Source of the DNA: Pseudozobellia thermophila
Lineage (GTDB): Bacteria > Bacteroidota > Bacteroidia > Flavobacteriales > Flavobacteriaceae
Direction of reading: 5' to 3'
Length of the DNA stretch: 64,000 bases
Assembly: GCF_900141855.1 (NCBI RefSeq)
Contig: NZ_FQYU01000001.1
Coordinates: 95,402 to 159,401 of the forward strand
The position numbers and the translations under genes were made by a program. Shown one piece after another: positions 43,470-61,235 of this stretch (the stretch's first letter is position 1; every line of letters starts with the position of its first letter). A model generated the notes under the pieces. The model did no database searches. It was not told the DNA's origin and saw nothing but the letters and a program-made list of their open reading frames with translations.

Positions 43470-43549
43470 GTGTAACAGCTTGGCTTTTTACATCAAATTA
43501 ATTTTAGCAGCCTTGATAAAGTGGTCAATGGTAGTAATCAGAAACCCCG

Positions 43550-43576: not shown

Positions 43577-43629
43577 TCAGAGTAAGAAGATCCTGAGCCA
43601 AGCACTAAACAATTAAAAGTAAGATAGTA

Positions 43630-44038: not shown

Positions 44039-44067
44039 AAATGCGACCGCTTAATACTAGGTTGAAT

Positions 44068-44100
44068 GGGCATAAGCGTGACGCTTGTGCCAGCAGGGGA
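44068..44100. repeat. Right-end hairpin / REP-like motif, family member 2
   Basis: GGGCATAAGCGTGACGCTTGTGCCAGCAGGGGA, which contains the palindrome AAGCG-TGA-CGCTT. Confidence 0.55.
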
Positions 44101-44205
44101 GAGAAATCAACTATCCAGGAGGCGGGCATCAATATGAGTTTATAAACGATTGGAGTATTGATAATTTCACAGATTATTTAAACTTAATAGAAAAAAAATA
44201 ATCAA

Positions 44206-44754: not shown

Positions 44755-44881
44755 GACTTACTCCCGCTAGCGCGAACATTTGAACCAAGCTTGCCGAAGT
44801 ATCACGGCGGTACCCACTACAGCGATAATACCCAGTAGGCTATAAAAGCAAAACGAATATGGGTTTGCAACAAATTTTTAA

Positions 44882-44919
44882 CCGCACAAACGTGACACCG
44901 GCACTAGCAGATGATGCTC
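44882..44919. repeat. Solo REP-like motif, family member 3
   Basis: CCGCACAAACGTGACACCGGCACTAGCAGATGATGCTC, about 90% identical to 42683..42720. Confidence 0.55.
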
Positions 44920-44970
44920 ACAATTAAATCTTTATAAGGTGGATTTAAGTAAAATGGATTGGATTACTAA

Positions 44971-45477
44971 ATGGAAATATTGATACAAATGAACATTACC
45001 GCAAAAGAATTTAGGACGATTAAACCTTTCGAATCATACACGGAGAATGATGTACAAGGAGGATTGACAAAATCTGTATTGGATATCTATTTATATATAT
45101 ATGATAATTTCTCGGTAATGAACTTTGTCGCTGATTATAACAAACAAAATCCTTTAGAAGTATTTGGCAATACTCCAAAAGAAAAAAGACTAGTACAATT
45201 AAATAATTTAAATAAAAGTATAGAAAAAGGCAACGACCCGGTTTCGATTGGAAAGTATTCCTTATTGGATAACAACCTAATAGAAATGAAATGGAATTAC
45301 TATTACGGAGAAGATATTGAATTGATCTTTAAAGGGGAAATACTCTTAAACGGTGATGCCCTAAAAGGAACCTTCTATAAGAATGGGGAAGTCGACATAC
45401 CCTCTAGGGTTTACTACAACATCGACAAACCCTTGCCCGACCCTTTGATCCCGGAGGATGATGAAGATATGGCTTAA
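44971..45477 (+). CDS. Hypothetical protein (168 aa)
   Basis: ORF only. Confidence 0.5.
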   Translation: MEILIQMNITAKEFRTIKPFESYTENDVQGGLTKSVLDIYLYIYDNFSVMNFVADYNKQNPLEVFGNTPKEKRLVQLNNLNKSIEKGNDPVSIGKYSLLDNNLIEMKWNYYYGEDIELIFKGEILLNGDALKGTFYKNGEVDIPSRVYYNIDKPLPDPLIPEDDEDMA

Positions 45478-45685
45478 TAAAAGGAAAACAAAACACTATT
45501 CCCTGCAGGGGTTTAGTGCAGGAAAAAATGGCGTATTGGGTGCTCCCGAATGGCATTTGCCTAAAAACATTGAAATGGATAAGGGTGCAGAACTGTGGGA
45601 AATTTTAAACGATGAATCGGAAATCTTAAGAGGTCGGATAGTCGATATATATGATTCTAAAACCTTCATAACAATAATCAATTAA
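45458..45685 (+). CDS. Hypothetical small protein (75 aa)
   Basis: ORF overlapping the previous stop by 20 bp. Confidence 0.35.
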   Translation: MMKIWLNKRKTKHYSLQGFSAGKNGVLGAPEWHLPKNIEMDKGAELWEILNDESEILRGRIVDIYDSKTFITIIN

Positions 45686-45687
45686 AA

Positions 45688-46140
45688 ATGAAGTATAGAT
45701 TTGGCTCATATGTAGTTTACAAAGAAATGGATTGTTATTTAATCTCCAGAAAAGAATGGAGAATAGTATCCAAGGATATTAAGAGTCAAAAACTAGGGTT
45801 TAAAGCCTATGAGGCTGGTTTCCCTTATTATAAAAAAATCGATAAGACCGACATACAATCAGGTTATTTTGTTCGTACAAAAGCAAAATACAAAGATTTC
45901 ACCTTTGAATTATTTCAAAATGAGGCATTGAAAAATGATTATAAAGTACGATTAAAATTGAACAACCTTGACTTTGATGCCTACGATTATTTTGGGTTTC
46001 CTTACCGAAATGATGATGCCAGTATTGAAGTCAATGAGGAAGAATTGGAAGAAATTTGGGAAGAGCGCAAACCCCTAGCTCGGTTCCCGTTCAAAACAGA
46101 AAAAATAAAGTTTATAAAAAAAGAAGGGGAGTTTTTGTAA
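45688..46140 (+). CDS. Hypothetical protein (150 aa)
   Basis: ORF only. Confidence 0.5.
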   Translation: MKYRFGSYVVYKEMDCYLISRKEWRIVSKDIKSQKLGFKAYEAGFPYYKKIDKTDIQSGYFVRTKAKYKDFTFELFQNEALKNDYKVRLKLNNLDFDAYDYFGFPYRNDDASIEVNEEELEEIWEERKPLARFPFKTEKIKFIKKEGEFL

Positions 46141-46287
46141 TGTCCTCATCAAGGTTTTTCATATTTAATACTAGTATATCAACATTGCAACCCTGTACGT
46201 TTAAAATGTATGGCCCGAATTGGTCGTTAGTTCCAAAAAAATCAGCGCTAAGGAATACAAGGCTAAGAGCCTGTCTAAAATGGCCTT

Positions 46288-46554
46288 ATGACTAAAAACA
46301 TGAAATCCAAAAGAAACATAGAACCCATAATAACTTACTCTATTGCCATAATTTTAATCGGGTATCTTCTTCTGAATTACGGCTCGTTTCACATAGATGA
46401 AGACTACCCTTCATCATGGAAGGCACAATTGATACACATAGTCTCTAAATTTCTTTTAAATGATACAGCCGGGCGCATGGTAGGCCAAATAGTCCTTTCG
46501 CTATTGGGTATCGTTTGCTGCTTTAAAATTTACAAAGTCATAAAAGCTAAATAA
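46288..46554 (+). CDS. Small two-TM membrane protein, paralog 1
   Basis: IEPIITYSIAIILIGYLL...LSLLGIVCCFKIYKVIKAK; paralogous to the next ORF. Confidence 0.45.
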   Translation: MTKNMKSKRNIEPIITYSIAIILIGYLLLNYGSFHIDEDYPSSWKAQLIHIVSKFLLNDTAGRMVGQIVLSLLGIVCCFKIYKVIKAK

Positions 46555-46564
46555 TTGCCTAGGC

Positions 46565-46816
46565 ATGAGACCGAAAAGAGATATAGAACCGATCATAGCT
46601 TACTCTATAGCAATAATGTTAATAGTGTATTTGCTTGCCAGCTATGACACCTTTTCCGTTGATGAAAACCGCCCTCCTCATGGAAAATGGATTGTTGTTA
46701 TATATAAGTTTCTTTTAAATCATGAGTTTGGCAGTATTATCGCCAAAGGAGTCCTATTGTTGTTGGGCATCTATTGTTGCCGTCAACTATACAACGCTTT
46801 TAAAACTAAACAATAG
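46565..46816 (+). CDS. Small two-TM membrane protein, paralog 2
   Basis: IEPIIAYSIAIMLIVYLL...LLLLGIYCCRQLYNAFKTKQ. Confidence 0.45.
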   Translation: MRPKRDIEPIIAYSIAIMLIVYLLASYDTFSVDENRPPHGKWIVVIYKFLLNHEFGSIIAKGVLLLLGIYCCRQLYNAFKTKQ

Positions 46817-46951
46817 TCTGATATGGTGTTCCCATAATAACCAGAGAGGCTCCTGATTTTTGAGATAATTTAGGAGGAGCTATGTAGTAGTCCCTTCCAA
46901 TGGGATGAAATTAGAATCATTTAATATGGTAAGATTTAAAAAGTAATTTTT

Positions 46952-47206
46952 ATGAACTGGCATAACGCATTAAAAGATATATATCGAAAACTTGAAGCTT
47001 CTGGATATAAAGGAATCAAGGAGGATATTCATGAAGGTCAATTGAGTGGTGGAACTGGTGGGGAATTTTTTTCAATAGTTCTAACTAAATTAATAGAAAT
47101 CAAAAAAAATCAACCCATTGTCTATTGCTTGCTAAAAAAAGAAGTAGATGAATTTATTGCTTATGCTAAATCAATTAATTACTTGAACTCTGATTTTAAG
47201 ATTTAA
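46952..47206 (+). CDS. Hypothetical small protein (84 aa)
   Basis: ORF only. Confidence 0.4.
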   Translation: MNWHNALKDIYRKLEASGYKGIKEDIHEGQLSGGTGGEFFSIVLTKLIEIKKNQPIVYCLLKKEVDEFIAYAKSINYLNSDFKI

Positions 47207-47329
47207 TTTTTATGAAAGAGTGCATCCCTGCGGTGAAAAATTAGCAATAGGAAAAATTGGCCTTCGGCAGCGCAGGCGTCACAGCTAAAACACTGTCCCC
47301 GCTTGTGATTAATACTTTTAATAATATCA

Positions 47330-47731
47330 ATGGGCTATCTAAAAGACTATAATAGAAATAAAGACGAAATTCTTCATTCTTTTCAAGACTTAATCGAAAA
47401 GGAAGATGATTCATTTTCAGAACTTGGGTTTAATTTTTCAAAATGTGGGTTTGGTGATGCAAGAAGTCAAGACGACCATATAGAATTTATCTGGAAAAAA
47501 GAAAAAAGAGAACTCAGTGTTTGCTTTTGGATCCCTTTTTGGAAGAACTACAAAATTGACGAGAACTTTATGGTAACCTATAGTCTAACTAATGATATGG
47601 GTAAAAAGCATCCATTAATTTCTAAGGCTATTGAATTCAATAAATTACGCGGGGAAAATATTAGAGCCAAGATAAGCACACTATTCAAACATATTGCGGA
47701 AATCATCAATTCAAAAAATATAAATTTATAA
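47330..47731 (+). CDS. Hypothetical protein (133 aa)
   Basis: ORF only. Confidence 0.5.
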   Translation: MGYLKDYNRNKDEILHSFQDLIEKEDDSFSELGFNFSKCGFGDARSQDDHIEFIWKKEKRELSVCFWIPFWKNYKIDENFMVTYSLTNDMGKKHPLISKAIEFNKLRGENIRAKISTLFKHIAEIINSKNINL

Positions 47732-47736
47732 TAGTT

Positions 47737-47811
47737 CCCTCACGCTCGTGCCCGCAACAGACAATACCCCCCACTTCGGCAGGCTCGGCGCAAGGCTTCG
47801 AAGGGCGGGGA
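47737..47811. repeat. Hairpin-rich repeat element, copy 1
   Basis: TCACGCTCGTGCC (half of the IS200-like LE palindrome) followed by CCCCCCACTTCGGCAGGCTCGGCGCAAGGCTTCGAAGGGCGGGG; the same roughly 45-bp imperfect hairpin recurs at 56043..56089. Confidence 0.6.
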
Positions 47812-48010
47812 ATGTTCCCGGCCTTAGGGCCAGTTCGCAGGTATGCATTTGGAATTGTCTTCGGTACTGGCCACACGGTCAAGCAAGTCGGCCCGGGAGT
47901 GAAAACCACGCGTATTAAATACTTACAACAAAATAAAACTTCCTACACAAATATTAATTTTCTTGTAGTCCTTACAACGCCAATATTCACAATATATAAC
48001 ACGTACTTCA

Positions 48011-48221
48011 CTCATTACAAACACAATAACTTCATTTAAAAAAATCTAAGATTCATTACATTTCATCGAAATTTTTGTAGTATTTTTCGCTTTTTAACTT
48101 AAATTTAACTAGTTAAGAATACGAATCATTGTACCGATTATTAGTTCCCCTTCTTATGTGTTGTACACTTGGTTTTTCCCAAAGTATCAACTTTGACCAA
48201 TTGGGCAAGGAGAAATGGCTC
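48011..48221 (+). repeat. Direct repeat copy B: the functional promoter and 5' end of the OMP gene
   Basis: See copy A at 42306..42517. Confidence 0.7.
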
Positions 48222-50588
48222 AGATACAACGGCGGTGTGTCGGCCAATGCCGTCTATTACGACGGTACCGCCAACCGACAGGAGCTCACCTATTACCTCA
48301 CCGGAAGCTTAAACTTCAACATTGCCGGGGTGTACAACGTTCCGCTATCGTTTACCTATTCGAACCAAGAGTTCAATTTTCCCAACCCCTTTAACTTTAA
48401 TCGCTTGAGCCTGCATCCATCCTACAAATGGGCTACCGCACATATCGGCGACGTAAGCATGACCTTTTCGCCCTACACCCTCGCCGGTCACCAATTTACG
48501 GGCGGCGGTTTTGACCTGAATCCGGAAGGGAAATTTCAAATAAGCGCCATGTACGGCCACTTTTTAAAGGCCACCGAATACAACGAGGAACACCCCGAGG
48601 CCCTTACCGCCTACAAACGCATGGGCTATGGCATAAAGACCGCCTATGATTTCGATTTTATGAAACTGGGACTCATTCTCTTTAAGGCCCATGACGAAGA
48701 GAACTCATTGGAAAATCCGTTTCCCGTGGAGCTCGGACTCTCACCCAAAGACAATGCCGTGCTCTCCTTCGAATCGGAATTCCGGCTTTTCGAAAAGGCC
48801 AGTATACACATAGAATACGCCATATCGGGCGTTACCGAGGACACGAGGCCGACCGAAGCCCCTTCGTCTCCCGGGCTGCTGTCCTTCCTTCTAAAAGAAA
48901 ACATAAGCACCCAATACTACAAGGCCCTGAACGCATCGTTAGACTACCCCGCGGGCAACGGAACCTTGGGACTAGGGTATGAACGCATCGACCCCGAGTA
49001 CAAGACCCTGGGTGCCTATTATTTCAACAACGACCTCGAAAACATCACGGTAAACGCGAGCCAGTCGGTTTTCGACAACAAACTCAACCTCAGCGTAAAC
49101 GCCGGCCTGCAGCGCGATAACCTGAACAAGGCCAAATCATCGGACCAACAGCGCATCGTAAGTGCCATCAACGCCAATTACACGGCCTCCGACCGTTTGG
49201 GCTTCAATGCATCCTACAGCAACTTTCAGTCCTACACCAACATTCGCGACCAGTTCGATTACATCAACCAAGTAGGGGCCTACGACAATATAGACACGCT
49301 GAACTATCGCCAGATTTCACAAAATGCCAACTTGGGCATCAACTACATCCTCAAAAAAACAGAGACCAAACAGCACAGCACCAACCTTAACCTGGTCTAT
49401 CAAAACAGCACCAACCAACAGGAAGGCGAAACCATAGAAGGCGGGGAAAACTCCTTCTACAACGGTATGGCGGGCTATACCCTGGGCTACCCCAAACAGG
49501 CCCTCAACATCTCCTTGGCCGCCAACGTTTCGTACAATACCGTGGCCGAGGACGACAACATGACCCTTGGCCCCACCCTATCCATCGGCAAGCAGTTTTT
49601 CGACAAGCAACTGCGCACCAACTTTTCAAGTTCGTACAATACGAGCTACGCCAACGGGGAACAGCAGAACAACATCCTTAACTTTAGGTTGGGCAGTAAC
49701 TATACGCTGTACAAAAAACACAACCTCAGCCTTAATTTTCTGATGCTTTTCAGGAATTCGGAACTCAATACGGGGCGCGACCTGACCATTACCTTCGGCT
49801 ACAGCTATGCCTTTGACAACTTTAAGCTCGACCTTGATTCCCATAGGCGCAGTCCCAACGAACGCGACCCCCGCAACAGGGAAAGCACGTTGAGCTTCCG
49901 CTACCGCAATGTATCGTACAGCGGCACGATACCCCAACTGAACGAGCAGCTGACCAACGTGTACGAGAGTCCGCAGTTCGCCGACATCCCCCAATTCAAG
50001 AAAGACGAGCTCAAAATCCTTTTGGCCACCGTCAAAGAGCAAAAGCGGGAGGAAAAATACAAGGAGCAGGCCCTTATTTTTCTTGAGGAGCTCTACGCCT
50101 TCGACGATTTTAAAACCATTTACGACGAGGCCCTGTACAACGTGGTCATGGCCATCAAAGACGACATGAAGAAAGTGGACATGGCCCTGGAAAAACTCTT
50201 CGTCGCCAAAAAACTGGAAGCCGACGAGCACCCCCTGAACGGAAAGGGTCCCGAAAACTATACGGAAAAGGACAAAACCCTGGTGCCGGAGTACGAAGCC
50301 CTCCTAAAAGAGCGGGAGACCCGTTTGCGAAAATTGGTAGGACATAGGTGGATGGAAACCCAGTTCGCCGCCTTTACCTCCAAGGAAAAGATAGCGAAAG
50401 GAATAGGCTTTTTACTGGAGTTCAAGAAAAAACAGGCCCTAAAATCCTTTGAGCTTTATGAAAAAACCGAAAACCAGGAAAAACTGGAATACTACCTCGA
50501 AAACGAAATCATCGATTTCTACTATAAGAAGTCGCTGAAAACGGTAAACCCCGAACTGTTCGAACTGAGGTATATCAATAAATTGTAG
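48129..50588 (+). CDS. Large outer-membrane beta-barrel-like protein (~570 aa, aromatic/Asn/Ser/Thr/Tyr-rich) with a ~230-aa C-terminal helical Lys/Glu-rich domain; unknown family
   Basis: TTG start with signal peptide (M)YRLLVPLLMCCTLGFSQS; alternating beta-strand character with frequent aromatic-Asn/Ser residues; C-terminal ...KEQKREEKYKEQALIFLEELYAFDDFKTIYDEALYNVVMAIKDDMKK is helical. Confidence 0.7.
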   Translation: MYRLLVPLLMCCTLGFSQSINFDQLGKEKWLRYNGGVSANAVYYDGTANRQELTYYLTGSLNFNIAGVYNVPLSFTYSNQEFNFPNPFNFNRLSLHPSYKWATAHIGDVSMTFSPYTLAGHQFTGGGFDLNPEGKFQISAMYGHFLKATEYNEEHPEALTAYKRMGYGIKTAYDFDFMKLGLILFKAHDEENSLENPFPVELGLSPKDNAVLSFESEFRLFEKASIHIEYAISGVTEDTRPTEAPSSPGLLSFLLKENISTQYYKALNASLDYPAGNGTLGLGYERIDPEYKTLGAYYFNNDLENITVNASQSVFDNKLNLSVNAGLQRDNLNKAKSSDQQRIVSAINANYTASDRLGFNASYSNFQSYTNIRDQFDYINQVGAYDNIDTLNYRQISQNANLGINYILKKTETKQHSTNLNLVYQNSTNQQEGETIEGGENSFYNGMAGYTLGYPKQALNISLAANVSYNTVAEDDNMTLGPTLSIGKQFFDKQLRTNFSSSYNTSYANGEQQNNILNFRLGSNYTLYKKHNLSLNFLMLFRNSELNTGRDLTITFGYSYAFDNFKLDLDSHRRSPNERDPRNRESTLSFRYRNVSYSGTIPQLNEQLTNVYESPQFADIPQFKKDELKILLATVKEQKREEKYKEQALIFLEELYAFDDFKTIYDEALYNVVMAIKDDMKKVDMALEKLFVAKKLEADEHPLNGKGPENYTEKDKTLVPEYEALLKERETRLRKLVGHRWMETQFAAFTSKEKIAKGIGFLLEFKKKQALKSFELYEKTENQEKLEYYLENEIIDFYYKKSLKTVNPELFELRYINKL

Positions 50589-50869: not shown

Positions 50870-53800
50870 ATGACCAACAGCGTTATAAAACATATGAAAA
50901 ACAACGATTTAGCATTGCAGCATCCCTTTACAAACCCGGTAAATGGCCGTGGCGCATGGCGCAAGACCTTCGGTAAGGGTCAGGCTGTGCTTTTATACAT
51001 GCTTCTTTTCTTCCTATGCTTCCTGGGTAGCCTCGCGGTAAACGCCCAGTCCTTTCCCGTTCAGGTGATTCCTCAGGTAACCCCGCCGGCGCCGATCTAT
51101 TTCTCCGATTATGCCGATGCGAGTACCTTGGGCAGTCCGCTCCGCGTGCAGATCATCTTGAACGATTTTGAGATCGCCAACCGCGAGATACGCCTGCGTA
51201 CCTATTTTGAGGGCGGGGGTATCAGCTTTCATAGTAACGATGTGGTGCTAGGTGCCGAAAAACTCTATTTGGAAGGCGGCGTGCCCTTGGTACTCACCAA
51301 CGTACAATTGGCCCCGTACTTTAGGTTCGAGAACATTAGCGGAATATCGCCCAACGTATACGGAAAAGCCATTCCCGAAGGCGCCTACTCCTTTTGTTTT
51401 GAGGTGTACGATGTACTGACGGGCAACCGCCTGTCGCAAAAAAGCTGTGCCACCAGCGTTGTCTTTCAAAACGAACCGCCCTTTCTGGTCGCACCGAGAA
51501 ACAAGTCCAACCTAGCCGAAACCAATCCGCAGAACATCGTCTTCCAATGGACGCCACGCCACATCAACGTGAGCAATGTGGAATACGAACTGAGCATCGT
51601 GGAGATCTGGGATACCCAGGTAGACCCGCAACAGGCCTTTTTAAGCTCTCCGCCCGTTTTTCAGGTCACGACCACCGCCACCACCTACGTATACGGTCCG
51701 GCCGACCCGCTTTTTCTTTCGGGAAAAAACTACGCCTGGCGCGTACAGGCCAAGGCCAAGCAAGGGGTCGAGGAAATCGGACTCTTCAAAAACCAGGGCT
51801 ATAGTGAAATCTATTCCTTCAGCTATGCCGGCACCTGCGACCTGCCCATCGGTATCAACCACGAAGTAAAGGGCAGTACCAATGCCAATATCTTTTGGGA
51901 CGATTTCGCTACCGATGTGCCCGAATATACGGTGCGGTACCGCCAAAAGAACATAGAGGGAGCGGAGTGGTTTATGAACAAGACCACTTCGAACCAAACC
52001 ACCCTGTGGGACCTTAAGGCAGGCACCACCTACGAATACCAGGTGCAAAAACAATGCTCGGTGACCGGAAGCGATTGGAGCATGGCCAAGGAGTTTACCA
52101 CCTTTATCGCCGACGACGAAGCCAGTGTCTACGACTGTGGCATAACGCCCGATTTTGATGTTTCGAACAAAGAGCCCCTGCCCAGCATCTCCTCCGGTGA
52201 AAAGTTTATGGCGGGCGACTTCCCCATAAATATTTTAAAGGTAAGCGGTAAAAATGGCCGTTTTACGGGTAAAGGATACGTGACCATCCCTTATTTGAAC
52301 AGCATTCGAGTGGGCGTAGAGTTTACCAATGTGCTTATCAATACCGACAAGAAATTGGCCGAAGGTACCGTAGTCACCACCTACGACCCGAGTTTAAAGA
52401 ACATCTTGGACATAAACGAATCAGTCGATACGGTAGAAGATGCCGTTGATGCCGTGGGGGAATTTTTTGAAGGAGATAACGACCTAGATGAAATTCGCGT
52501 CAACTGGGCCCTTAGATCTAAGAAAGATATAAAAATAAAAGGTGGTAAAGTCGTGATCACCAACCCCAATACGGGGGCAACCAAATCGGAACCCTTAGGC
52601 GACGATATGGTGATTACCGACAGTGAAGGGAAAACCTATTACGTAGATGCGGAAGGAAAAATAACCGAAGGGGGATCACTTGCTACTGGCGGGGCCATAA
52701 GCCCGGATACCGTAGAAGGCGTCTCGAACAACGGCCAAATAGAATCCTTAACGGCAGAAGGTGTTCTGGTCACCTTTAACGAAGCGGGTACGTATGCCAT
52801 GGATATAATGCCCAAGGGCGAAATAGGAAAGCTCAAGGACGAGTACACAGTTATAAAGGATGCGGAAGGCAACGACTATGTGCTTACCCACCATGCCGTA
52901 AAGAATAGGGCAAGCACCAAAATAAAGGCCAAAATCGACATTAAAAACGATGCCTACGATGTATCGGATGTCATCTTCAAGACCAAGCATGGGGATAGTA
53001 TCCCCACGACCTTCAAGGGCAATCAGGCCACCTTGACCTTGAAAGGCAGGTTTACCTTCGAAAACGAGGTAATCTATGCGGTCGTACCCGACAAGGACGA
53101 CAGTACAAAACAACTTACGGCCGGGGCGTTTACCCTTTGGCATCTATCCGAACGCACCGTAAAAGTGGCCCTGGTTTCCGTTAACGGCGCCTCTTTGGGT
53201 AATATCGAATCCAACGTTTCCGACATCTTCAAAAAAGCGGTGGCCCGTATTGAGTTCGGCGAGAGCCTTTCCCTTTCCGTCACCAAGGACGAACTAGGAA
53301 GCAACCAAAAATTGGATGTAGGCGAAAGCGCATGGGCCGCGGCCTATAACGAGGAACAGAAGATGCTCGTAAACAAGGTGAAGCAATTGCCCAACTATAA
53401 GACCGACACCTATTATGTCTTGGTCTTCAACGACATAGAACCTTCAGAATCCATCGGTGGATTTATGCCCCTACAGCGGCAAATGGGCTTTGTATTTGGC
53501 GGTGACCCAGATGATGGTGAAGATAAGAACGGGGACAAGAGCAAGACCTTGGCCCACGAAATAGGCCATGGTATTTTCGCCCTTCAGCACCCCTTCGCTG
53601 AATATGACATGCCTGAAAATCAAACCGATTGGCTCATGGATTATGGCAGTGGAGACCAATTGCCCCATACCCATTGGGCCCAGATCCATGACCCGGCCCT
53701 TAAATTCTACATTTTTCAAGATGAGGAGGATGGTTTATTAATACAAAACGGAATCACTCCATATCTTAACATTCATGAAAAAAATTGGGATAATTATTGT

Positions 53801-55912
53801 TTTTTGTCTCCTATTGGTACTGCAATAGATATACCGGGTGCCACCCATGTAATGTTTAATGAAGATGGGGCCGTAATTGCTTTTAAAATAGGTAATGAAA
53901 AATTTTTAGGGCTTTATAACCCGGCCAAGCAGCGTTTTATAGGATATCTCAACTCTACTTCAAAACTGATTACAAAAGAAATGAGTCTCACAGAAGACTT
54001 TAGAAAAAAATTCAATGAAGAAAAATTCACCAATATCAAATTTGCTGAAAAATCCAAAGATATTGTCGCAATTGCTAAAAAAAAGCATAAATCAAGATAT
54101 TTGGATTGTATCTATCAAGTGATATGGGAAAATTCAACAATAGGAAGTAGCTATACTGGTATATCAACCCCGCCCTTTATTCCAAATGACGGTACCATAG
54201 AGAATTTTATTTCTGGCAATCAATGTGCAAATGCTACAAGTGATGGAATAATCGATGGCCCAGGTGATGTAGTTTATTTTAAACTATTTGAGTTTGTTGA
54301 CAATGAAGAAAGAATAAAATTGATAGAGTTTTCAAATTACTTATCCGATTTATTAAAAAATAAAACCTTCGCGTTCTACGGATATGGTTTAGAAAATTAT
54401 GAAATATCCAATTCGATTAACAAAGAAGTTTTAAATTATTTAACAAACAATAAGATTTATTCCAAGGAAAAATTTGAAGAACATTTTCCCATTCAAACAT
54501 TCTCACGTGACAAAGACATAATATTTTCCACAATTGATTTAAGAAAAACAATACCAAAGGATTATAATTCGAAGGAAAGTATAGATTATGAAATACTCAA
54601 TGCGACAGGGGAAAAGCGTCCATATGAATATTCTTTCTCTGATTTGACAGTTCGACTTCAATATTTAGCCGACGACACTTTTATTAAAACGGCCATTCAT
54701 AAAATGGAAGCCGAAGGTAGAGCTGAGCCAATTTCTCAAAAAGACGGATACAACCAATACGTAGCTAAGTATGGTACTGATGCCGCGTTTATTCTATGGG
54801 CAGAATTTGCTTCCAATGCTAGCAAAGATGTTATGTCCGCTTATTTTATCCATAGAGTCACTGCTGAATATGGTGTTGCCCTCTTACAAGAAATTTCAAA
54901 AGAAGCGGCAGAAAAATTCATATGGGGAGTACTAGAGGAATCTATTCCGAATTACCTTGCAAACGAATTACTTGACGAAGATCAATTTAGTAAAGACTTC
55001 TTTCAAGATGCATTGTTAGCAGGTGTCAAAAATACAATTAGCCCCACAGGTAGAAAATTTACGGATGTTGCAATTGAGAAAGGATATGATTGTCTCATTG
55101 GACTTGATATATCAACAATTGATGGTCTTTTATTTTCAAAGTCAAAAGAAGAATTGGAAAAATACTTACTGTATGGGTCATTTGAATGTGTTTTTCCAAT
55201 GATTGCTCCCAAACTGTTTGATTATGTACTCAAAGGTAACCCGGTCGCAAAAAAAGTACACAAATATTTGACAACAAAGCTAAATATTGACCATAGTCAG
55301 ACCCCTGATTTAATGATTAAAATGTTGGGGATGGAAAAAAACTTAAAGGGGAAAAGCGAACATTATAGAAGTGTTTTAAAAGAAATCATTACTACAGAAT
55401 CTGGCGCCCAAGCAATTGATGTTTTAATTAAAGCAAATTTTGACTATACCACGTTATCGGTCTCCAATTTAAGAAGACTAAAAAATGTCGTAGAAAAATG
55501 GGGAAACAGTAATGAAATGGTGGAATTATTCAAAAGCACAACCGATGTAAACAGAATGCTGATTTACATGGAAAAAATGGTGAAATCACCACAAGAATAC
55601 AAAGAGCTATTAAAAAAAATAGGCGAAAATGAGATGTTTTCAAAAACAATAACGATAAATGGAAAAACAGTGAATATAGAAACCTATTTCAATAGTTTTC
55701 ATGACGGGTATACCTATTATCACAAACAAGAGAATAACATACATTACTATGCGAAAATGAACGGGGCCGACGGTTTGCGTATCATAATAGACCTAACCAA
55801 TAGTGCTATTCCTGTGATAAAAAATATATCGTATGGCACAGCAGCTAACGTTCTGAAAGATTTCATATCAAATTCGATAGAATATAAGTTGGACATTTCA
55901 GATGATAACTAG
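50870..55912 (+). CDS. Giant secreted multidomain protein (about 1680 aa): FN3-like domains, a central zincin-like HEIGH metallopeptidase module, and a low-GC C-terminal third of unknown function
   Basis: The ORF is open from 50795, but its first 25 codons are the heptamer repeat. Candidate starts are M at 50870, 50894 or 50999, all before the signal-like segment LLYMLLFFLCFLGSLAVNAQS. FN3-like blocks (e.g. ...IVFQWTPRH...YAWRVQAKA..., ...TVRYRQKN...YEYQVQKQ). LAHEIGHGIFALQHPF at 53555..53569. GC drops from about 50% to about 28% near 53700. Confidence 0.8.
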   Translation: MTNSVIKHMKNNDLALQHPFTNPVNGRGAWRKTFGKGQAVLLYMLLFFLCFLGSLAVNAQSFPVQVIPQVTPPAPIYFSDYADASTLGSPLRVQIILNDFEIANREIRLRTYFEGGGISFHSNDVVLGAEKLYLEGGVPLVLTNVQLAPYFRFENISGISPNVYGKAIPEGAYSFCFEVYDVLTGNRLSQKSCATSVVFQNEPPFLVAPRNKSNLAETNPQNIVFQWTPRHINVSNVEYELSIVEIWDTQVDPQQAFLSSPPVFQVTTTATTYVYGPADPLFLSGKNYAWRVQAKAKQGVEEIGLFKNQGYSEIYSFSYAGTCDLPIGINHEVKGSTNANIFWDDFATDVPEYTVRYRQKNIEGAEWFMNKTTSNQTTLWDLKAGTTYEYQVQKQCSVTGSDWSMAKEFTTFIADDEASVYDCGITPDFDVSNKEPLPSISSGEKFMAGDFPINILKVSGKNGRFTGKGYVTIPYLNSIRVGVEFTNVLINTDKKLAEGTVVTTYDPSLKNILDINESVDTVEDAVDAVGEFFEGDNDLDEIRVNWALRSKKDIKIKGGKVVITNPNTGATKSEPLGDDMVITDSEGKTYYVDAEGKITEGGSLATGGAISPDTVEGVSNNGQIESLTAEGVLVTFNEAGTYAMDIMPKGEIGKLKDEYTVIKDAEGNDYVLTHHAVKNRASTKIKAKIDIKNDAYDVSDVIFKTKHGDSIPTTFKGNQATLTLKGRFTFENEVIYAVVPDKDDSTKQLTAGAFTLWHLSERTVKVALVSVNGASLGNIESNVSDIFKKAVARIEFGESLSLSVTKDELGSNQKLDVGESAWAAAYNEEQKMLVNKVKQLPNYKTDTYYVLVFNDIEPSESIGGFMPLQRQMGFVFGGDPDDGEDKNGDKSKTLAHEIGHGIFALQHPFAEYDMPENQTDWLMDYGSGDQLPHTHWAQIHDPALKFYIFQDEEDGLLIQNGITPYLNIHEKNWDNYCFLSPIGTAIDIPGATHVMFNEDGAVIAFKIGNEKFLGLYNPAKQRFIGYLNSTSKLITKEMSLTEDFRKKFNEEKFTNIKFAEKSKDIVAIAKKKHKSRYLDCIYQVIWENSTIGSSYTGISTPPFIPNDGTIENFISGNQCANATSDGIIDGPGDVVYFKLFEFVDNEERIKLIEFSNYLSDLLKNKTFAFYGYGLENYEISNSINKEVLNYLTNNKIYSKEKFEEHFPIQTFSRDKDIIFSTIDLRKTIPKDYNSKESIDYEILNATGEKRPYEYSFSDLTVRLQYLADDTFIKTAIHKMEAEGRAEPISQKDGYNQYVAKYGTDAAFILWAEFASNASKDVMSAYFIHRVTAEYGVALLQEISKEAAEKFIWGVLEESIPNYLANELLDEDQFSKDFFQDALLAGVKNTISPTGRKFTDVAIEKGYDCLIGLDISTIDGLLFSKSKEELEKYLLYGSFECVFPMIAPKLFDYVLKGNPVAKKVHKYLTTKLNIDHSQTPDLMIKMLGMEKNLKGKSEHYRSVLKEIITTESGAQAIDVLIKANFDYTTLSVSNLRRLKNVVEKWGNSNEMVELFKSTTDVNRMLIYMEKMVKSPQEYKELLKKIGENEMFSKTITINGKTVNIETYFNSFHDGYTYYHKQENNIHYYAKMNGADGLRIIIDLTNSAIPVIKNISYGTAANVLKDFISNSIEYKLDISDDN

Positions 55913-55960
55913 CGAAACATATAAACATATAATTAATGGCGTGCGGAACACCCCTCTAGC

Positions 55961-56089
55961 GCAAGCATCACGCTCGTACCATGTTCAAAACACCCCTGTA
56001 AAGTAGTAGGGTACTACTTTACCGTCCCCCCAAGGGGACAATAACCCCTACTTCGGCAGGCTCGGCGCAAGGCTTCGAAGGGCGGGGGA
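55961..56089. repeat. Hairpin-rich repeat element, copy 2 (longer; nested palindromes)
   Basis: TCACGCTCGTACC ... GTAAAGTAGTA-GGG-TACTACTTTAC (11-bp arms) ... GTCCCC-CCCAA-GGGGAC ... CCCCTACTTCGGCAGGCTCGGCGCAAGGCTTCGAAGGGCGGGGG; the 3' part is nearly identical to 47767..47811. Confidence 0.6.
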
Positions 56090-56222
56090 TGTAGGATCGA
56101 ACCGATGCAGATAGAAGGGAAAAATAGAAAGGTGAATAAAACAAAAAGAAGAAAAAATAAAAAATGATTGAGTCTCCCTTAGTTCCCTGGGGAGTACATA
56201 AACACGAAAAATTTCACGTAGT

Positions 56223-59200
56223 ATGAAAAACAACTACCTGTACATAGTTTCACTCCTATGCTTCGCTGCCGTCGTGTTCGGCCAGTCGGCATACGCCCAT
56301 GGCAACCCCTGGGCACATACAAGCTATTCCCTCCTGACCAGCAATATCGGGTCAAAAAGCTTATCGACACCCATAACGGAAAAAGATTCGACCTCGGCAA
56401 GTCCAAAGGACAGTGTCAAACTCAAAAAGGCAGATGCCCGACAGTTGGCCCACTTACAACAATTGGCGGCCCTTCGCGGCTCGGTATTGACACCCGCCGC
56501 AACGGCTCCTACCCCCCCTAAAACAGAAGAAGCAGCCGTTGAGGAAGAAAAGGTGTTCCGTTCCTTCCCTTCTTTGGACCAACAGTTGGCCGAAAGCCAA
56601 GACTTTAACGTGTCCTTCGCCAATCGCGCACCTGAGTTCAACGAGGCCTACCTGGCCGAAAACTTCCAGCAAAACCCTGCCGTAGAAAAACTGATCAATA
56701 ATGCCAAAGGCGCCCTCGATGCCGTCAAGGAGCTGGGCAACTTTGTAGACATCATAACCGGCAAAGACCTATTGGAACTCCCGGTGGGGCTCAAAAAGAC
56801 CGACCAGACCTCGAACAACTCCGTAGAGCTCGCCATTACCGAGGTAAAGTTCACCCCCGGCTATGCCCTACTCAAGGTATGGGCCCGATTGATCATACCC
56901 GAAAAGGGCGAAGTTAAAAACGAAAAAGATCGTGGCATCGAACGCGAACTCTTTTTTGGGGCCGAAAACGTAAAACTATCTTACGATGGCGGCCTATCGG
57001 GCGATATGAAACTGGTGCTGTTGGGCAACCAGGCCATCCCCATACAAGGCGACAACTGGCTATTGACCCTAAAAGGGGGAATAGACCTCAAAAAAAACAC
57101 CTTTGGCGACCAATCGTATATCGAGTTCGATTGCTCCGACCTAAAAGGCATCAGCCTTGAGGGCGACCTGCGGGTGTCGCGAAACGTACTCCTGCCCATT
57201 GACGAGAACGGTAATTACGTCTGTTCCGACAAAGGGGATAACCAAAATATAAAAGACAATGAAAAAGCCATAGAAAACAATTGCTACGTCGGCACCTCGT
57301 TCAGCGTAAAGGCCGAAGGTTGGAACGACCTTTTGGTCAATGTCGACCTACCGCGTTTTGAGGTGGTGGGCCTCAAGGGATGGGGCTTCAACCTTACCAA
57401 CGTAGTACTTGATCTAAGCGATAGTAGAAACGCGCCCAAACTCGACCTTCCCGAGGAATACGACCAAATCTACCCCGGTGAGGACAAAAAACTATGGCGG
57501 GGCTTCTATGCCGAAGAAGTAAGCGTTATGCTGCCCGAGGGCATCAATAGCACCAAGAAATCGAACGGCAGGGTCGAATTCGGGGCCAAAAACTTGGTAT
57601 TGGACAGTCAGGGTGTCTCGGGCACCTTCTATGGGGAAAACGTTCTAAAAACCGGCGATGGCGCCGCTGGCAAATGGGCCTTTACCATAGACGAGGTAAG
57701 CATTTCCCTTTCCCGAAATTCATTGACCGACGGATCCATCGGCGGAGACATTGCCGTTCCCATCTTCGAAGAGCCCATGGACTACGAAGGATACATAGCC
57801 CAAAACGGATATGGTCTGGAAGTGGGACTCAACAGCAACTACAAAACCCCCGTGTTCTTGGGTGAAATGCAACTCGAACGCAACTCCAGCGTAGCCATTG
57901 ATGTAAAAGAGGGCCATGTTTACCCCTCGGCCAACCTAACAGGAAAACTCTCCGTTATCGGTGAAATAGGCCAAAAAGAGGGGGATGCATCGCCCAGCGC
58001 CGAAGAAGCCGAAGCGAGCGGAAAGGGGTTCAGCTTTCCCGGAATCGAGTTTCAAGAACTAAAATTGGAGACCGAGCCCGGTAAAAAAACCATAAGTGCC
58101 GAGAGTTTCGGTTTTACCGGCGAAATGAAGCTGATGAACTTTCCCGCCTCGGTCGAAAACCTCGAATTGGTCACCCCCAAGGATCAGGTCGGCCTTTCCT
58201 TTGACCTAAAGATCAACCTTGATGGCGAAGGATCCCATGCCACAACCAGCATGGACATTATGGGCAAGTTGGAAGACGGTGCCAAAATCCATAAATGGAA
58301 ATTTGAAAAAGTATCGGTCGATGGTATTGAGATCGATTACACCAAAGCCAATTTTCAAATTACCGGCGAACTGGATGTTATGGAAGACGACCCTGTCTAT
58401 GGCAACGGGTTTAAGGGGAATCTCACCGCCACTTTCAAAAAATTAAAGTTCAGCGCCGAAGGCAATGCCATTTTTGGGAATAAGGATTTCAGGTATTGGA
58501 CCGTGGACATCGCCACCAACTCCATACAAAACGAGGGCACAACGAAATTGCCCATTAAGGCTTTCGTCGGTGGTCTATCGTACAAAATGCAAAAGGTCAG
58601 CGGCAACAGTTCCGGCTTCGAACCGGGAACGGCCGTTTATAAACCCGATGCCAATACTGGGCTAGGGGTACGTGCCGGGGTAAAAATCACCACCGAAAAT
58701 GCCGACGCCTTCTCCTGTAAAGCCTATCTCGAAATGGAGTTCAATGCACATGGCGGACTCAACCGGATCGGATTTATGGGCGAAGGGGCCATCATGGGCA
58801 AGGACGAAACAAGTCCGGACGACCTAAAGAAATCGGCAGAGGTCGCCGAAAAAGTCGATCAATCGCTACAAGACAACTCTGCAGCTGCCCAAAATAAACA
58901 ATACGGAAACTTTATGGCCGCGGCCAAGGAATCGATTCCCGTACACGATGTAGCTGCTTCGGGCAAGGTCGGTGTGTACGTGGGTATTGAAAAAGATTTT
59001 GTCAACGACACCTTTGACGGCGAATTTGAACTCTATATGGATCTCGAGGCCATCAAAGGCGGAGGAGCCAATAATTTGGCCGGCTATGCCAAAATACACA
59101 CCGGCCCCACTGACTGGTATATGTATATCGGTACGCCCGACCAGCGAATAGACCTGTTGTTCAACTCCGGCGTTCAGGTAAGGGTCGGCGGCTACTTTAT

Positions 59201-61235
59201 GACCGGAACAAAATTACCGGCCCCAGGCGACATCAGCCCCCACCCAATAGTTACCAAAATTTTGGGCGATGATATATTGAGGGGCGAACGCAAGGACAAC
59301 CAACTTACTGCAGGAAAAGGCTTCGCCTTCGGTATGAATTTCGGCTACGGCTATGGCTTCGATTGGGGCCTATTCTACGCCATGGTAGAAATCGGTGCCG
59401 GTTTCGATGTCATGCATGCCTATTACCCCAATGCCAAATGTGTGGGCAGACCAGGACCCGTTGGCAACAACGGCTGGTATAGCATGGGCCAGGTATACGC
59501 CTATTTGTACGGAGAGTTCGGTGTTAAGGTAGACCTCGCCTTTATCAAAGGGAATTTTACGATTGCCGAGGCGGGCGTTGCTGCCGCGCTAAGAGGCCAA
59601 TTTCCAAACCCGGTCTATATTCAAGGGTATGTAGGTATGTATTACAAAATCTTGGGCGGACTTGTATCGGGAAGAATGAGGATGAAGGTAGAATTAGGGG
59701 AGGAATGCGAACTGGAGAATATTAACGACACCATTGGCGTTCCGATGATCTCCGATGTAACACCTAGGGATGGAGACGATGATGTTTCAGTATTTGCGGC
59801 TCCTCAAGCCGTTTTCAATTACGCCGCCAACTCGGACTTTACCGTTGATCTAGAAGAGGGGGTCAGGACCTTTAAGTTGCAGTTGAAAAACTTTACCGTC
59901 ACTTCCGAAGGCCAAGAAATACTAGGAAGTTTAGAGTGGAACGACACCAACGATGCCGTTACGTTCAAACCGGAACGCCCCTTACCTTCGGAAAAAGAGG
60001 TAAAAGTGGTGGTCGAGGTCAGTTTTGACGAAAAGATTGATGGCACCTATAAAACCATGACCGAGGAAGGCAAGCCTGTCTTGGAAAAACAGGAGATTGT
60101 CTTTGTTACCGATAAGGCGCCGGACCATATTGTATGGGAAAACGTGGCTTATTTGTACCCTGTGAAGGAGCAGCGAAATTTCTATCCAAAGGAATACAAG
60201 ACGGGTTATGTCAAAATGATCCAGCCCCAGGACAATCTCTTTAACAAAGGCTTTGAAATAAGGGCCGAGTTTGTATCCAGGGCTTCAGGGCAGGGTGTCC
60301 GAACCCCTGTTAGTTATGACAAAAACAAGGGCATGGTCTTTTTTGATATTCCTGATTTGATGCTTGATGCCGAATACGACCTGAACTTAATGGTCTTTCC
60401 TCCGGGTCAGGAAATTCCCACGGAAATCGTCGTCGAGGAAACCGAATTGTTGGCAGACGAAGAAGGAGGGGACACTACGTGGTACGACCCCGATACCGAA
60501 ACCCAAAGTACAAAAAACGTATCGGCCAGCGCAGTAGTGGCCAACAAAAAAGCATCAAGTGTTACCATTTCGAATGCCGCCCCAAAATCTATTTTTGATT
60601 ATCCCTTCAAAACAAGTAGACATGAGACATTTGGGGATAAAGTCAAGAATTTAGAGCCCACAAACTATCTCCTTAATGCATCCATATATGCCGATGTCCA
60701 TTCATTATCAATTCAGGTTACAGATTATGAATATCTTGATATACTAGAAGTAATTGGGAATTCTTACACTCAAACAAAACCTTTAGTTTATGCTGAAGCG
60801 GTCTTAAATGACAGTTATTATAAGAAGAAAATCGGGCCTTTGTTGTATGATGATGATATATATCCACTAGGCGGGAATATAGAATTAGATAGAGACACAA
60901 CAATCCTAGGGGTTCCCCCTATTAGATCTTTTGTTATCGGTGACGAGTATATGGCAAACCTAGCCTCGAACCCAAGCTCATTCTGGGTTAAAAATAGAAT
61001 ACCACATATCTATAATTTGCCTTACCAATACAAAGCCGATATGGTCAATTTGAGAGAGAAGTTTATAGAAATTTATTCCGAAGGAGAAGGTGATAAAGAA
61101 ACATACAACAACTTCAAGTATTTGATGACGAGTTTTCCTCCTTTACCCTTGGGGACTTATAATGCCAAATTAATTTATAGAACGCCTGGACAATTATATC
61201 AAAAAGGATATCCCATAAAATACAAAAATCAATAG
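56223..61235 (+). CDS. Giant secreted protein (1670 aa) with an Ig-like (Big/SbsA-type) segment and a low-GC C-terminal ~220 aa; unknown function
   Basis: Signal peptide MKNNYLYIVSLLCFAAVVFGQ; Ig-like block VTPRDGDDDVSVFAAPQAVFNY...VTFKPERPLPSEKEVKVVV; GC falls to about 35% from about 60580 to the stop. Confidence 0.8.
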   Translation: MKNNYLYIVSLLCFAAVVFGQSAYAHGNPWAHTSYSLLTSNIGSKSLSTPITEKDSTSASPKDSVKLKKADARQLAHLQQLAALRGSVLTPAATAPTPPKTEEAAVEEEKVFRSFPSLDQQLAESQDFNVSFANRAPEFNEAYLAENFQQNPAVEKLINNAKGALDAVKELGNFVDIITGKDLLELPVGLKKTDQTSNNSVELAITEVKFTPGYALLKVWARLIIPEKGEVKNEKDRGIERELFFGAENVKLSYDGGLSGDMKLVLLGNQAIPIQGDNWLLTLKGGIDLKKNTFGDQSYIEFDCSDLKGISLEGDLRVSRNVLLPIDENGNYVCSDKGDNQNIKDNEKAIENNCYVGTSFSVKAEGWNDLLVNVDLPRFEVVGLKGWGFNLTNVVLDLSDSRNAPKLDLPEEYDQIYPGEDKKLWRGFYAEEVSVMLPEGINSTKKSNGRVEFGAKNLVLDSQGVSGTFYGENVLKTGDGAAGKWAFTIDEVSISLSRNSLTDGSIGGDIAVPIFEEPMDYEGYIAQNGYGLEVGLNSNYKTPVFLGEMQLERNSSVAIDVKEGHVYPSANLTGKLSVIGEIGQKEGDASPSAEEAEASGKGFSFPGIEFQELKLETEPGKKTISAESFGFTGEMKLMNFPASVENLELVTPKDQVGLSFDLKINLDGEGSHATTSMDIMGKLEDGAKIHKWKFEKVSVDGIEIDYTKANFQITGELDVMEDDPVYGNGFKGNLTATFKKLKFSAEGNAIFGNKDFRYWTVDIATNSIQNEGTTKLPIKAFVGGLSYKMQKVSGNSSGFEPGTAVYKPDANTGLGVRAGVKITTENADAFSCKAYLEMEFNAHGGLNRIGFMGEGAIMGKDETSPDDLKKSAEVAEKVDQSLQDNSAAAQNKQYGNFMAAAKESIPVHDVAASGKVGVYVGIEKDFVNDTFDGEFELYMDLEAIKGGGANNLAGYAKIHTGPTDWYMYIGTPDQRIDLLFNSGVQVRVGGYFMTGTKLPAPGDISPHPIVTKILGDDILRGERKDNQLTAGKGFAFGMNFGYGYGFDWGLFYAMVEIGAGFDVMHAYYPNAKCVGRPGPVGNNGWYSMGQVYAYLYGEFGVKVDLAFIKGNFTIAEAGVAAALRGQFPNPVYIQGYVGMYYKILGGLVSGRMRMKVELGEECELENINDTIGVPMISDVTPRDGDDDVSVFAAPQAVFNYAANSDFTVDLEEGVRTFKLQLKNFTVTSEGQEILGSLEWNDTNDAVTFKPERPLPSEKEVKVVVEVSFDEKIDGTYKTMTEEGKPVLEKQEIVFVTDKAPDHIVWENVAYLYPVKEQRNFYPKEYKTGYVKMIQPQDNLFNKGFEIRAEFVSRASGQGVRTPVSYDKNKGMVFFDIPDLMLDAEYDLNLMVFPPGQEIPTEIVVEETELLADEEGGDTTWYDPDTETQSTKNVSASAVVANKKASSVTISNAAPKSIFDYPFKTSRHETFGDKVKNLEPTNYLLNASIYADVHSLSIQVTDYEYLDILEVIGNSYTQTKPLVYAEAVLNDSYYKKKIGPLLYDDDIYPLGGNIELDRDTTILGVPPIRSFVIGDEYMANLASNPSSFWVKNRIPHIYNLPYQYKADMVNLREKFIEIYSEGEGDKETYNNFKYLMTSFPPLPLGTYNAKLIYRTPGQLYQKGYPIKYKNQ

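Follow-up and report, generated by a model that had tools for sequence, protein, structure and literature searches.

The gene at 50870..55912 in a 64,000-nucleotide (nt) stretch of the genome of the marine flavobacterium Pseudozobellia thermophila (contig NZ_FQYU01000001.1, positions 95,402 to 159,401; hereafter the window) probably encodes a polymorphic toxin. It would belong to a Flavobacteriaceae-centred family that closely resembles the TANFOR class, and we propose a scheme for its release and delivery. We put the probability of this reading at about 0.78. Residues are numbered throughout from the ATG at 50870 (1680 amino acids, aa).

50870..55912, + strand: polymorphic toxin gene, from open reading frame (ORF) calls, a 100% identical database protein (P0001) and 633 homologues

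The breaks in composition, protein conservation and DNA homology fall at one point within this gene. A first-pass annotation had reported an abrupt fall in guanine plus cytosine (GC) content inside it, and formal calculation found the composition to be strongly non-uniform. The maximum-likelihood change point lies at nt 53700 (codon 943), with a log-likelihood ratio of 77.9; 200 codon shuffles gave a mean of 3.0 and a maximum of 9.7. The GC content is 49.9% up to codon 955 and 32.8% beyond it, and the GC content of third codon positions (GC3) falls from 60.5% to 28.4%. In 300-nt windows, GC ranges over 44–55% at 50950–53650 and 26–39% at 53800–55900, and returns to approximately 50% by 56200, in the next gene.

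Alignment of 109 relatives revealed that conservation persists to the motif FQDEEDG (residues 949–955) and collapses immediately past it.

53714..53734, + strand: junction motif FQDEEDG, last conserved codons and recombination breakpoint (conservation collapses after G955, Zobellia DNA identity stops at 53733, and 32 of 119 relatives break at residues 950–960)

The junction, ...FQDEEDG/LLIQNG at 53734/53735, lies 46 codons past the ...LQHPF of the HEIGH motif, close to the 45 estimated at first, and leaves a C-terminal cassette of 725 aa. Over the N-terminal part, the closest relative is Zobellia galactanivorans P0003, 95% identical in protein to residue 955 and with zero similarity from there on, the pattern of N-terminal identity and C-terminal non-homology that had been predicted for orthologues. 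Four syntenic DNA blocks link the window to the corresponding Z. galactanivorans locus (L001), namely 35531–42226 (88%), 47882–50598 (88%), 50813–53733 (93%) and 56076–63245 (85%). The Zobellia DNA is near-identical through ...TTTCAAGATGAGGAGGATGG (F-Q-D-E-E-D-G), and similarity is gone from the following base. A relative carrying the same cassette (L002) stays in register with the window beyond the junction. These alignments show that the cassette has been exchanged by recombination at a fixed FQDEEDG junction, the nearest relative filling the slot that matches 53734–56075 with an unrelated tail and two small genes of its own.

A search with the whole protein returned 633 homologues, chiefly from Flavobacteriaceae (Zobellia, Maribacter, Arenibacter, Cellulophaga, Aquimarina), and breakpoints were mapped onto the query for 119 listed relatives. 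Full-length collinear orthologues are few: six of the 119 align to the C-terminus (P0002 at 69% identity; P0006 at 52%; P0008, P0017, P0021 and P0028 at 43–49%), and 113 lose similarity before it. The loss occurs at residues 950–960 in 32 relatives, 961–1000 in 17, 1001–1060 in 38 and 1061–1300 in 15, and the subject residues past the break (median 831) are all unrelated. Relatives that break at 950–960 carry unrelated tails of 312–1152 aa. The secondary breakpoints at 1001–1060 are explained by the first ~100 residues past the junction, which form a beta domain with a similar but very divergent counterpart in many relatives; homology of architecture continues past the GC break. At least 10 toxin Pfam families occur in the relatives' tails, including AHH, ART (ADP-ribosyltransferase), EndoU, HNH / WHH/colicin-DNase, deaminase, TNT, Endonuclease_NS_2 and Tox-SHH. 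A shared N-terminal body joined to unrelated, predicted toxin tails is the defining pattern of a polymorphic toxin, and the diversity of known toxin domains at these C-termini bears out the polymorphic toxin reading of the first-pass annotation.

The break in GC content was found at codons 918–962 in all seven relatives examined, irrespective of cassette or host GC. In the Zobellia locus, with its unrelated cassette, GC falls from 49.4% to 34.2%, and Aquimarina relatives show the break too, though their own flanks are at 34–36%. The module first described as compositionally foreign is therefore AT-rich, but this is a feature of the variable part across the family and not of one strain. AT-richness might then be a selected or mutationally maintained property (through recombination, silencing or a Lys/Asn/Ile-rich protein) instead of a mark of recent low-GC import, with exchange still occurring. 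The shared break in seven relatives, low-GC Aquimarina and the unrelated Zobellia cassette among them, is what this would predict, as is the equal GC content of the two cassette modules described below (A 32.4%, B 33.2%) despite their independent recombination. We consider it possible but doubtful, since the fall in GC3 is a shift at synonymous sites, beyond amino-acid usage, and the composition break coincides to the base with the end of Zobellia DNA homology. Moreover, the orphan island upstream, which holds unexpressed remnants and small genes, has the composition of the cassette, as had been noted (35.8% versus 32.8% GC), and this fits a common low-GC pool among Flavobacteriaceae.

The conserved body carries the following features.

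50870..51046, + strand: N-terminal leader, putative Sec-type signal peptide (h-region AVLLYMLLFFLCFLGSLAVNA/QS), read by eye from the translation
51050..51870, + strand: highly conserved N-terminal domain, TANFOR-like in position, conserved across 114 relatives
51875..52081, + strand: fibronectin type III (Fn3) domain, residues ~336–404 (Pfam PF00041, E 7.8e-07; PDB fn3 chain matches)
53144..53650, + strand: metzincin-like Zn-metallopeptidase domain, with GFMP (residues 864–867), HEIGHGIFALQH (53555–53590) and WLMDY (53630–53644, Met-turn candidate)

The gene had been described as 1705 codons long. The ORF is real but its start is not: the 1705-aa frame (50795–55912) opens at a GTG within a heptamer repeat tract and is an artefact of read-through of that tract. 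The true start is likely the ATG at 50870 or that at 50894, giving 1680 or 1672 aa; P0001, from P. thermophila, is 1672 aa long and starts at 50894. The tract (50590–50830) comprises ~240 nt in ~34 degenerate units (CAATTAG / CAGTGGG / CAGTGAA) with higher-order periods of 14–70 nt. It occupies the ~305-nt gap between the stop of the upstream 819-aa gene and the toxin start, a gap of ~75 nt in Zobellia, and may serve as a spacer, have a regulatory role or simply vary in sequence.

In the translation, a hydrophobic h-region and an AxA-type site (LAVNA/QS) are visible, by eye alone. The Fn3 domain is the only one recognised in a Pfam and NCBIfam scan of the toxin, and no Pfam model detects the peptidase domain. 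HEIGH lies at 53555–53569 (H896–H900), where it had been placed. Three motifs, GFMPxxRQxGFxF, AHExGHGxFxLxHP and WLMDY, are essentially invariant among the 109 aligned relatives, as are the putative zinc ligands and general base. The zinc motif HEIGHGIFALQH reads HExxHx6H and not HExxHxxGxxH. A sequence-profile search of the PDB with the peptidase domain gave MMP-11 alone as its best, non-significant match (E 3.5), in an alignment that needs a one-residue gap, so that a fold search was needed. This supported a metzincin-like fold, the closest being adamalysins, fragilysin, mirolysin and CpaA. Compared with the metzincins (adamalysin/ADAM, fragilysin, pappalysin/mirolysin, archaemetzincin), the domain has an extra residue between the second and third His, its canonical Gly is off the metzincin position and its sequence similarity is insignificant. 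The metzincin-like site with one residue too many before the third His, suspected from the start, thus has the support of the fold search and of its invariance in 109 members. WLMDY (M923, Y925), near-invariant and 16 residues beyond H907, is a candidate Met-turn of the astacin/serralysin SxMxY type. The linker (residues 921–955) is of low confidence in the structure model.

We then turn to the cassette. Word-indexed searches gave two matches with the cassette alone and none with an alignment of module B. The candidate list had probably been filled by AT-rich words of low complexity, and exhaustive HMMER was used instead. Searching 1.84 billion representatives with the 725-residue tail returned 102 relatives only, whose coverage divides the tail into module A (tail residues ~20–375) and module B (~381–715).

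53735..54868, + strand: cassette module A (~378 aa), beta-rich and alpha/beta domains, from HMMER mapping; AlphaFold2 predicted local distance difference test (pLDDT) score of 83–95 for the beta domain
54869..55912, + strand: cassette module B (~347 aa), putative toxin domain, C-terminal or standalone, from HMMER mapping

Module A is internal in many family members, with unrelated tails of 200–450 residues beyond it. Module B always occupies the extreme C-terminus, with 0–50 residues after it (36 or fewer in all but one hit), and either sits behind different heads (P0145, P0071, P0196, P0150, P0190) or forms a standalone protein of 320–410 residues. At the level of sequence, these distributions show that modules A and B recombine independently. 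The swapped C-terminal cassette of the first-pass annotation is thus exchanged at the junction as proposed, but as two modules and not as one. Module A has no match in Pfam or the PDB, and module B none in Pfam, NCBIfam or the PDB; a Tox-* or enzymatic fold, which the first-pass annotation had proposed to look for, did not appear in these searches. Module B contains two invariant cysteines and is without a hydrophobic hairpin (maximum 19-residue Kyte-Doolittle score 1.07). From its position and its conserved partner we infer that module B is the toxin.

This partner was found by scanning species-representative genomes with a module B profile (7-sequence subset), to which two loci with the same cassette were added. 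Module B is followed by a protein of 178–242 residues in nine of the 11 other loci, and in most of them the partner start overlaps or abuts the toxin stop. The loci range over Flavobacteriales, Cytophagales (Marivirga) and Marinilabiliales/Bacteroidales, and in two (L004, L012) module B is a standalone gene paired with the partner. The partner has hydrophobic segments of transmembrane (TM) grade in its first ~95 residues and, beyond them, a soluble C-terminal domain marked by a GDT[IV]L[IV] motif; no Pfam family describes it. A cognate immunity protein would be expected directly 3' of module B, where the partner lies, and the partner is presumably one. A 109-aa gene that follows the partner in L002 was considered as a second immunity gene and rejected: its product aligns to the N-terminus of the 1670-aa operon protein described below, which indicates a split gene or a miscalled start. 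Separately, in L004 (3966–6383, Labilibaculum) and L010 (3751–4111, a Bacteroidales metagenome-assembled genome), ORFs beyond the module B-partner pair open directly with GFMP...HELGH...LMDY, followed by a GQDESEG-type junction and another tail. They resemble orphan cassettes, the peptidase-coding arm included.

In the window, the place of the partner gene is taken by a short gap.

55913..56222, no strand: non-coding gap where relatives carry the partner gene, 310 bp, with one copy (56037–56092) of a 56-nt repeat

No ORF longer than 41 aa lies wholly inside this gap and none resembles the partner family. An unfiltered search of all six frames of the window with a profile of the nine partners gave a best E of 0.84.

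We propose that the toxin would be exported by Sec and then displayed or delivered with the aid of the 819-aa, 1670-aa and 687-aa Fn3 proteins of its operon and a SprB-type substrate of the type IX secretion system (T9SS). Pfam and NCBIfam detect no T9SS cargo C-terminal domain in the toxin itself, whose C-terminus is module B. The metzincin-like domain would cut in or near the conserved linker, freeing the cassette. Module A might bind the target or mediate entry, as the entry domain does in CdiA-CT (the C-terminal part of CdiA), and module B would be a soluble toxin acting in the target periplasm or at the inner membrane, as its invariant cysteine pair and predicted membrane-embedded partner suggest. 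The conserved DNA coding for the metzincin-like domain and FQDEEDG may provide the 5' homology arm for cassette exchange; that downstream ORFs in L004 and L010 open with the peptidase module points to such a shared arm.

Several parts of this scheme have counterparts in known systems. TANFOR toxins, the closest class described so far, are known from bioinformatics, with one toxin tested and with secretion, processing and delivery left unknown (PMC7073777; Jana, Salomon & Bosis 2020). Like the family studied here, they are large Bacteroidota proteins with a Sec signal (a putative one in the window protein), a conserved N-terminal domain and an Fn3/Pur_ac_phosph_N-like match at ~300–390, and they share with it polymorphic C-terminal toxins (AHH, EndoU, TNT, deaminase and others) and downstream immunity genes. 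SprB, Fn3 and Por_Secre_tail genes lie near both, the Fn3 gene being in the window and the others in L001–L003. The TANFOR table of PMC7073777 has no Zobellia, Pseudozobellia or Maribacter protein, and nothing is said in the paper about metallopeptidase domains, a defined motif at the junction, breaks in composition or orphan arrays. In other polymorphic toxins, peptidase domains that precede the toxin have been interpreted as releasing peptidases (PMC3482391); one of these, PVC-metallopeptidase, is likewise a zincin-type HExxH domain N-terminal to a variable toxin. The domain in the window differs from PVC-metallopeptidase in being metzincin-like, with HExxHx6H and WLMDY, and in its Bacteroidota, T9SS-associated context; its activity is a prediction.

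The exchange at a short motif also has precedents. The junction motif is VENN in CdiA and PxxxxDPxGL in Rhs. In contact-dependent growth inhibition (CDI) and Rhs systems the C-terminal region is bipartite, its entry and toxin parts exchanging independently, and displaced tips and immunity genes accumulate as orphan arrays. Like CdiA-CT, Rhs-CT and MafB (PMC3482391 and the wider CDI and Rhs literature), the window toxin has a conserved delivery body that ends in a short conserved motif, with a variable toxin beyond it and, in the family, a downstream immunity gene. In contrast to these systems, its delivery body is unrelated and without FHA, RHS or YD repeats, its junction is FQDEEDG, and its orphan array lies upstream of the operon instead of downstream of the toxin and without the resident immunity gene. 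Among the features of polymorphic toxins listed by Zhang et al. 2012, polymorphic tails and orphan cassettes are present, and an immunity gene immediately downstream is absent.

A further resemblance concerns immunity. Colicin M/Cmi and the pore-forming colicins act in the periplasm or on the membrane and have membrane-anchored immunity proteins. Similarly, the partner of module B is a predicted integral membrane protein that also has a soluble domain, and the cysteine pair of module B fits an oxidising compartment. Module B does not, however, have the buried hydrophobic helical hairpin that pore-forming colicins carry in an all-alpha bundle, and the fold search found no similarity to any toxin of this kind; the resemblance is limited to the logic of immunity. 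Overall, the mechanism is of a known kind; less ordinary are the uncharacterised toxin-partner pair, the invariant metzincin-like domain before the toxin, the missing linked immunity gene and the upstream orphan array.

Several observations weigh against our reading. The TANFOR model TIGR02542 does not match the window protein even at E ≤ 10. In relatives it gives weak partial matches (P0008, 18.1 bits; P0057, 15.2 bits) over the last 40–55 profile positions only, whereas the NCBIfam cut-off is 67 bits and PMC7073777 required an RPS-BLAST E < 1e-7 over at least 90 aa. Remote homology of the N-terminal domain to TANFOR is possible, and since TIGR02542 misses the protein we describe it as TANFOR-like in architecture and do not file it as a member. 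Module B has no partner or immunity gene within the window, which makes self-protection a puzzle. In Aquimarina aquimarini and A. sediminis, too, this toxin has no adjacent partner, and the genes are intact. The fold search with module B found no similar fold, a weak negative given a model built from 21 sequences (pLDDT 77). The peptidase is not obligatory, since a short class of relatives (P0109, P0111, P0112, P0115) has a part resembling module A but no metzincin region. The family-wide AT-rich break points to a shared pool of low-GC cassettes, or to composition under selection, instead of one identifiable donor. Finally, we infer the peptidase activity, the cleavage site, the secretion route and the roles of the operon genes.

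The metzincin-like domain could also be something other than a self-releasing peptidase: a second effector, an enzyme that breaches the envelope of the target or the host matrix, or a catalytically dead structural module. Its closest folds are secreted proteases that act in trans, its zinc motif has non-canonical spacing, and cassettes of the module A type occur in the short-class relatives that lack it. The domain is, however, always immediately N-terminal to the junction, its putative ligands and general base do not vary in 109 members, the orphan or downstream ORFs of L004 and L010 start with it, and peptidases in the same position have been read as releasing ones elsewhere (PMC3482391). 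We therefore judge this alternative unlikely, though worth keeping in view.

A broader proposal would combine these elements. Module B and its multi-TM partner may form a new envelope-acting toxin-immunity pair with an unseen fold, and the metzincin-like domain, the operon proteins and the SprB-type substrate an undescribed apparatus for contact-dependent delivery and self-processing, with strains that have no partner protected otherwise (by lack of receptor or target, or by an unlinked immunity gene). We offer this tentatively, and think it rather unlikely to hold in full.

It is quite improbable that the C-terminal 725 residues are instead a variable adhesin, a receptor-binding domain or an anti-eukaryotic effector, for which an immunity gene would be unneeded. 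This would account for the lack of an immunity gene here and in the two Aquimarina loci and for a tail with no known toxin fold or Pfam domain, and predicted anti-eukaryotic tails were noted within the TANFOR class (PMC7073777). Nevertheless, module B followed by a conserved multi-TM partner in nine of 11 loci from three orders is the canonical toxin-immunity arrangement, standalone module B is paired with the partner in L004 and L012, and module B fills the slot held by nucleases, deaminases and ARTs in paralogous proteins. That the resident toxin is a defunct or silent leftover whose immunity gene has already been lost is very improbable: the partner gene is absent, a 56-nt repeat marks the presumed deletion junction and the heptamer tract widens the gap before the toxin relative to Zobellia, but nothing interrupts the 5-kb ORF, which aligns collinearly with P0002 over residues 1–1676 of 1680, the invariant residues of the module B family are all kept (the window sequence being the alignment reference), and the genes are also intact in two Aquimarina species where the toxin likewise has no immunity gene beside it.

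We therefore retain the polymorphic toxin reading, and the island upstream of the operon holds traces of earlier cassettes.

42227..47881, + strand: AT-rich island with an orphan toxin-tip and immunity array, a 5.6-kb synteny gap absent from Zobellia (GC 35.8%)
44918..45477, + strand: orphan module 1, a tip remnant (44918–44980; 71% identical to the P0085 C-terminus) and a 168-aa immunity-like ORF (44971–45477)
45458..46140, + strand: orphan module 2, a 75-aa toxin tip (45458–45685) and a 150-aa immunity-like ORF (45688–46140), from sequence matches
46825..47206, + strand: orphan module 3, a frameshifted tip remnant (46825–46943; matching the P0018 C-terminus) and an 84-aa immunity-like ORF (46952–47206)

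The immunity-like ORF of module 1 shares 61% identity with the gene that directly follows P0085. In module 2, the tip (45497–45682) is 42–69% identical to the last ~60 residues of P0014, P0015 and P0040, and the ORF matches the gene that directly follows P0014 at 80% identity; this pair (45458–46140) also follows the toxin-partner pair in Aquimarina L003. The ORF of module 3 shares 60% identity with the gene that directly follows P0018. These matches show that earlier tips, together with their immunity genes, have persisted in an orphan array, which here has been displaced to the upstream side of the operon. The first-pass annotation had called the island immunity-like, and it does hold orphan tips with immunity genes, but these belong to other toxins and not to the resident one. 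A cognate partner was sought among the upstream small ORFs and rejected: none is similar to the partner family by tblastn or hidden Markov model, the TM paralogues o88 and o83 giving E 2.9. These two, tandem ORFs of 88 and 83 aa at 46288–46816, are 50% identical, have two predicted TM helices each and are candidate membrane immunity proteins for another toxin. The island ORFs beyond the three modules (143, 182, 88, 83 and 133 aa, the two paralogues included) have no Pfam match.

Repeats flank the island.

42355..42525, + strand: ~170-nt direct repeat, left copy, with 80–83% identity to the right copy at 48060–48229
47760..47815, + strand: 56-nt GC-rich repeat at the right edge of the island, with a second copy (56037–56092) at the right edge of the cassette

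The right copy of the ~170-nt repeat comprises the promoter region and the beginning of the 819-aa gene; L001 7398–7567 corresponds to both copies, and the pair flanks the island. The 56-nt copies are 95% identical, are the only two in the window, are absent from L001–L003 and are each preceded by TCACGCTCGT; the second sits where Zobellia synteny resumes past the cassette. A structured RNA or repetitive extragenic palindromic element was rejected, the hairpin being no better than shuffles (z 0.08, -0.54) and Rfam having no match anywhere in the window. The 56-nt repeat may mark a duplication or deletion junction. Together the repeats suggest duplication and deletion within the locus, and one possibility is that the upstream array arose by tandem duplication of the 5' end of the operon and subsequent deletion. 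The island also contains a decayed Y1/RAYT-type transposase (42600–44916; frameshifted gene 43630–44038, duplicated 3' end 42600–42678) and, in the same region, three copies of a 33-nt repeat (42684, 44070, 44884). A similar Y1_Tnp gene follows a toxin-immunity pair in the metagenomic locus L015.

The toxin gene lies in a conserved operon.

48129..50588, + strand: upstream operon gene, 819 aa, syntenic in L001, L002, L013 and L014; no Pfam, NCBIfam or PDB match
56223..61235, + strand: downstream operon gene, 1670 aa, found after the toxin or toxin-immunity pair in L001, L002, L005, L007, L008 and L014; no Pfam or PDB match
61237..63300, + strand: Fn3-containing operon gene, 687 aa (Pfam fn3), in the contexts of L001, L002 and L003

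The gene order is a ~810-aa protein, the toxin, its immunity gene(s), a ~1650-aa protein, a ~690-aa Fn3 protein and a SprB/Por_Secre_tail substrate. Zobellia, strain MAR_2009_75 and Sediminicola keep this order, and Marivirga and Aquimarina keep part of it. In L001, L002 and L003, a SprB / Por_Secre_tail gene for a T9SS substrate follows the counterpart of the 687-aa gene. In the window, a fifth gene begins at 63303 (MPNLIKYF...), with 31–34% GC, and runs past the window end at 64000. Zobellia synteny stops at 63245, and the Zobellia counterpart of this gene is a SprB/Por_Secre_tail protein; its N-terminal part may also differ from genus to genus. At its 3' end (60550–61235), the 1670-aa gene drops to ~35% GC. 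This stretch is no second swapped cassette, since Zobellia synteny is unbroken over 56076–63245 at 85%, and is a conserved compositional feature.

Two further observations concern other defence and toxin genes. An isolated AT-rich gene at 30032–31141 on the minus strand (window GC 0.32) has as its product an abortive-infection protein of the AbiH type (Pfam PF14253, E 8e-26); it lies between biotin synthase (28846–29940) and a 479-aa ORF (31281–32720), and is a small phage-defence islet. In Aquimarina sp. ERC-38, a second, unrelated polymorphic toxin (SpvB/RHS-repeat, 2154 aa; L003 1–1995) lies a few genes upstream of the family toxin, which indicates a clustered toxin arsenal.

The locus leaves the general picture of polymorphic toxin evolution unchanged. 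What it adds is a large Flavobacteriaceae branch of at least 633 proteins that escapes the TANFOR model, and a toxin without a linked immunity gene, which poses a small puzzle of self-protection. It also defines a two-module cassette in which an uncharacterised putative toxin domain is paired with a predicted integral-membrane partner conserved across three orders, and a conserved five-gene operon that is a candidate delivery machine. The precise FQDEEDG exchange junction, placed after an invariant metzincin-like domain, leads to a testable hypothesis of toxin release.

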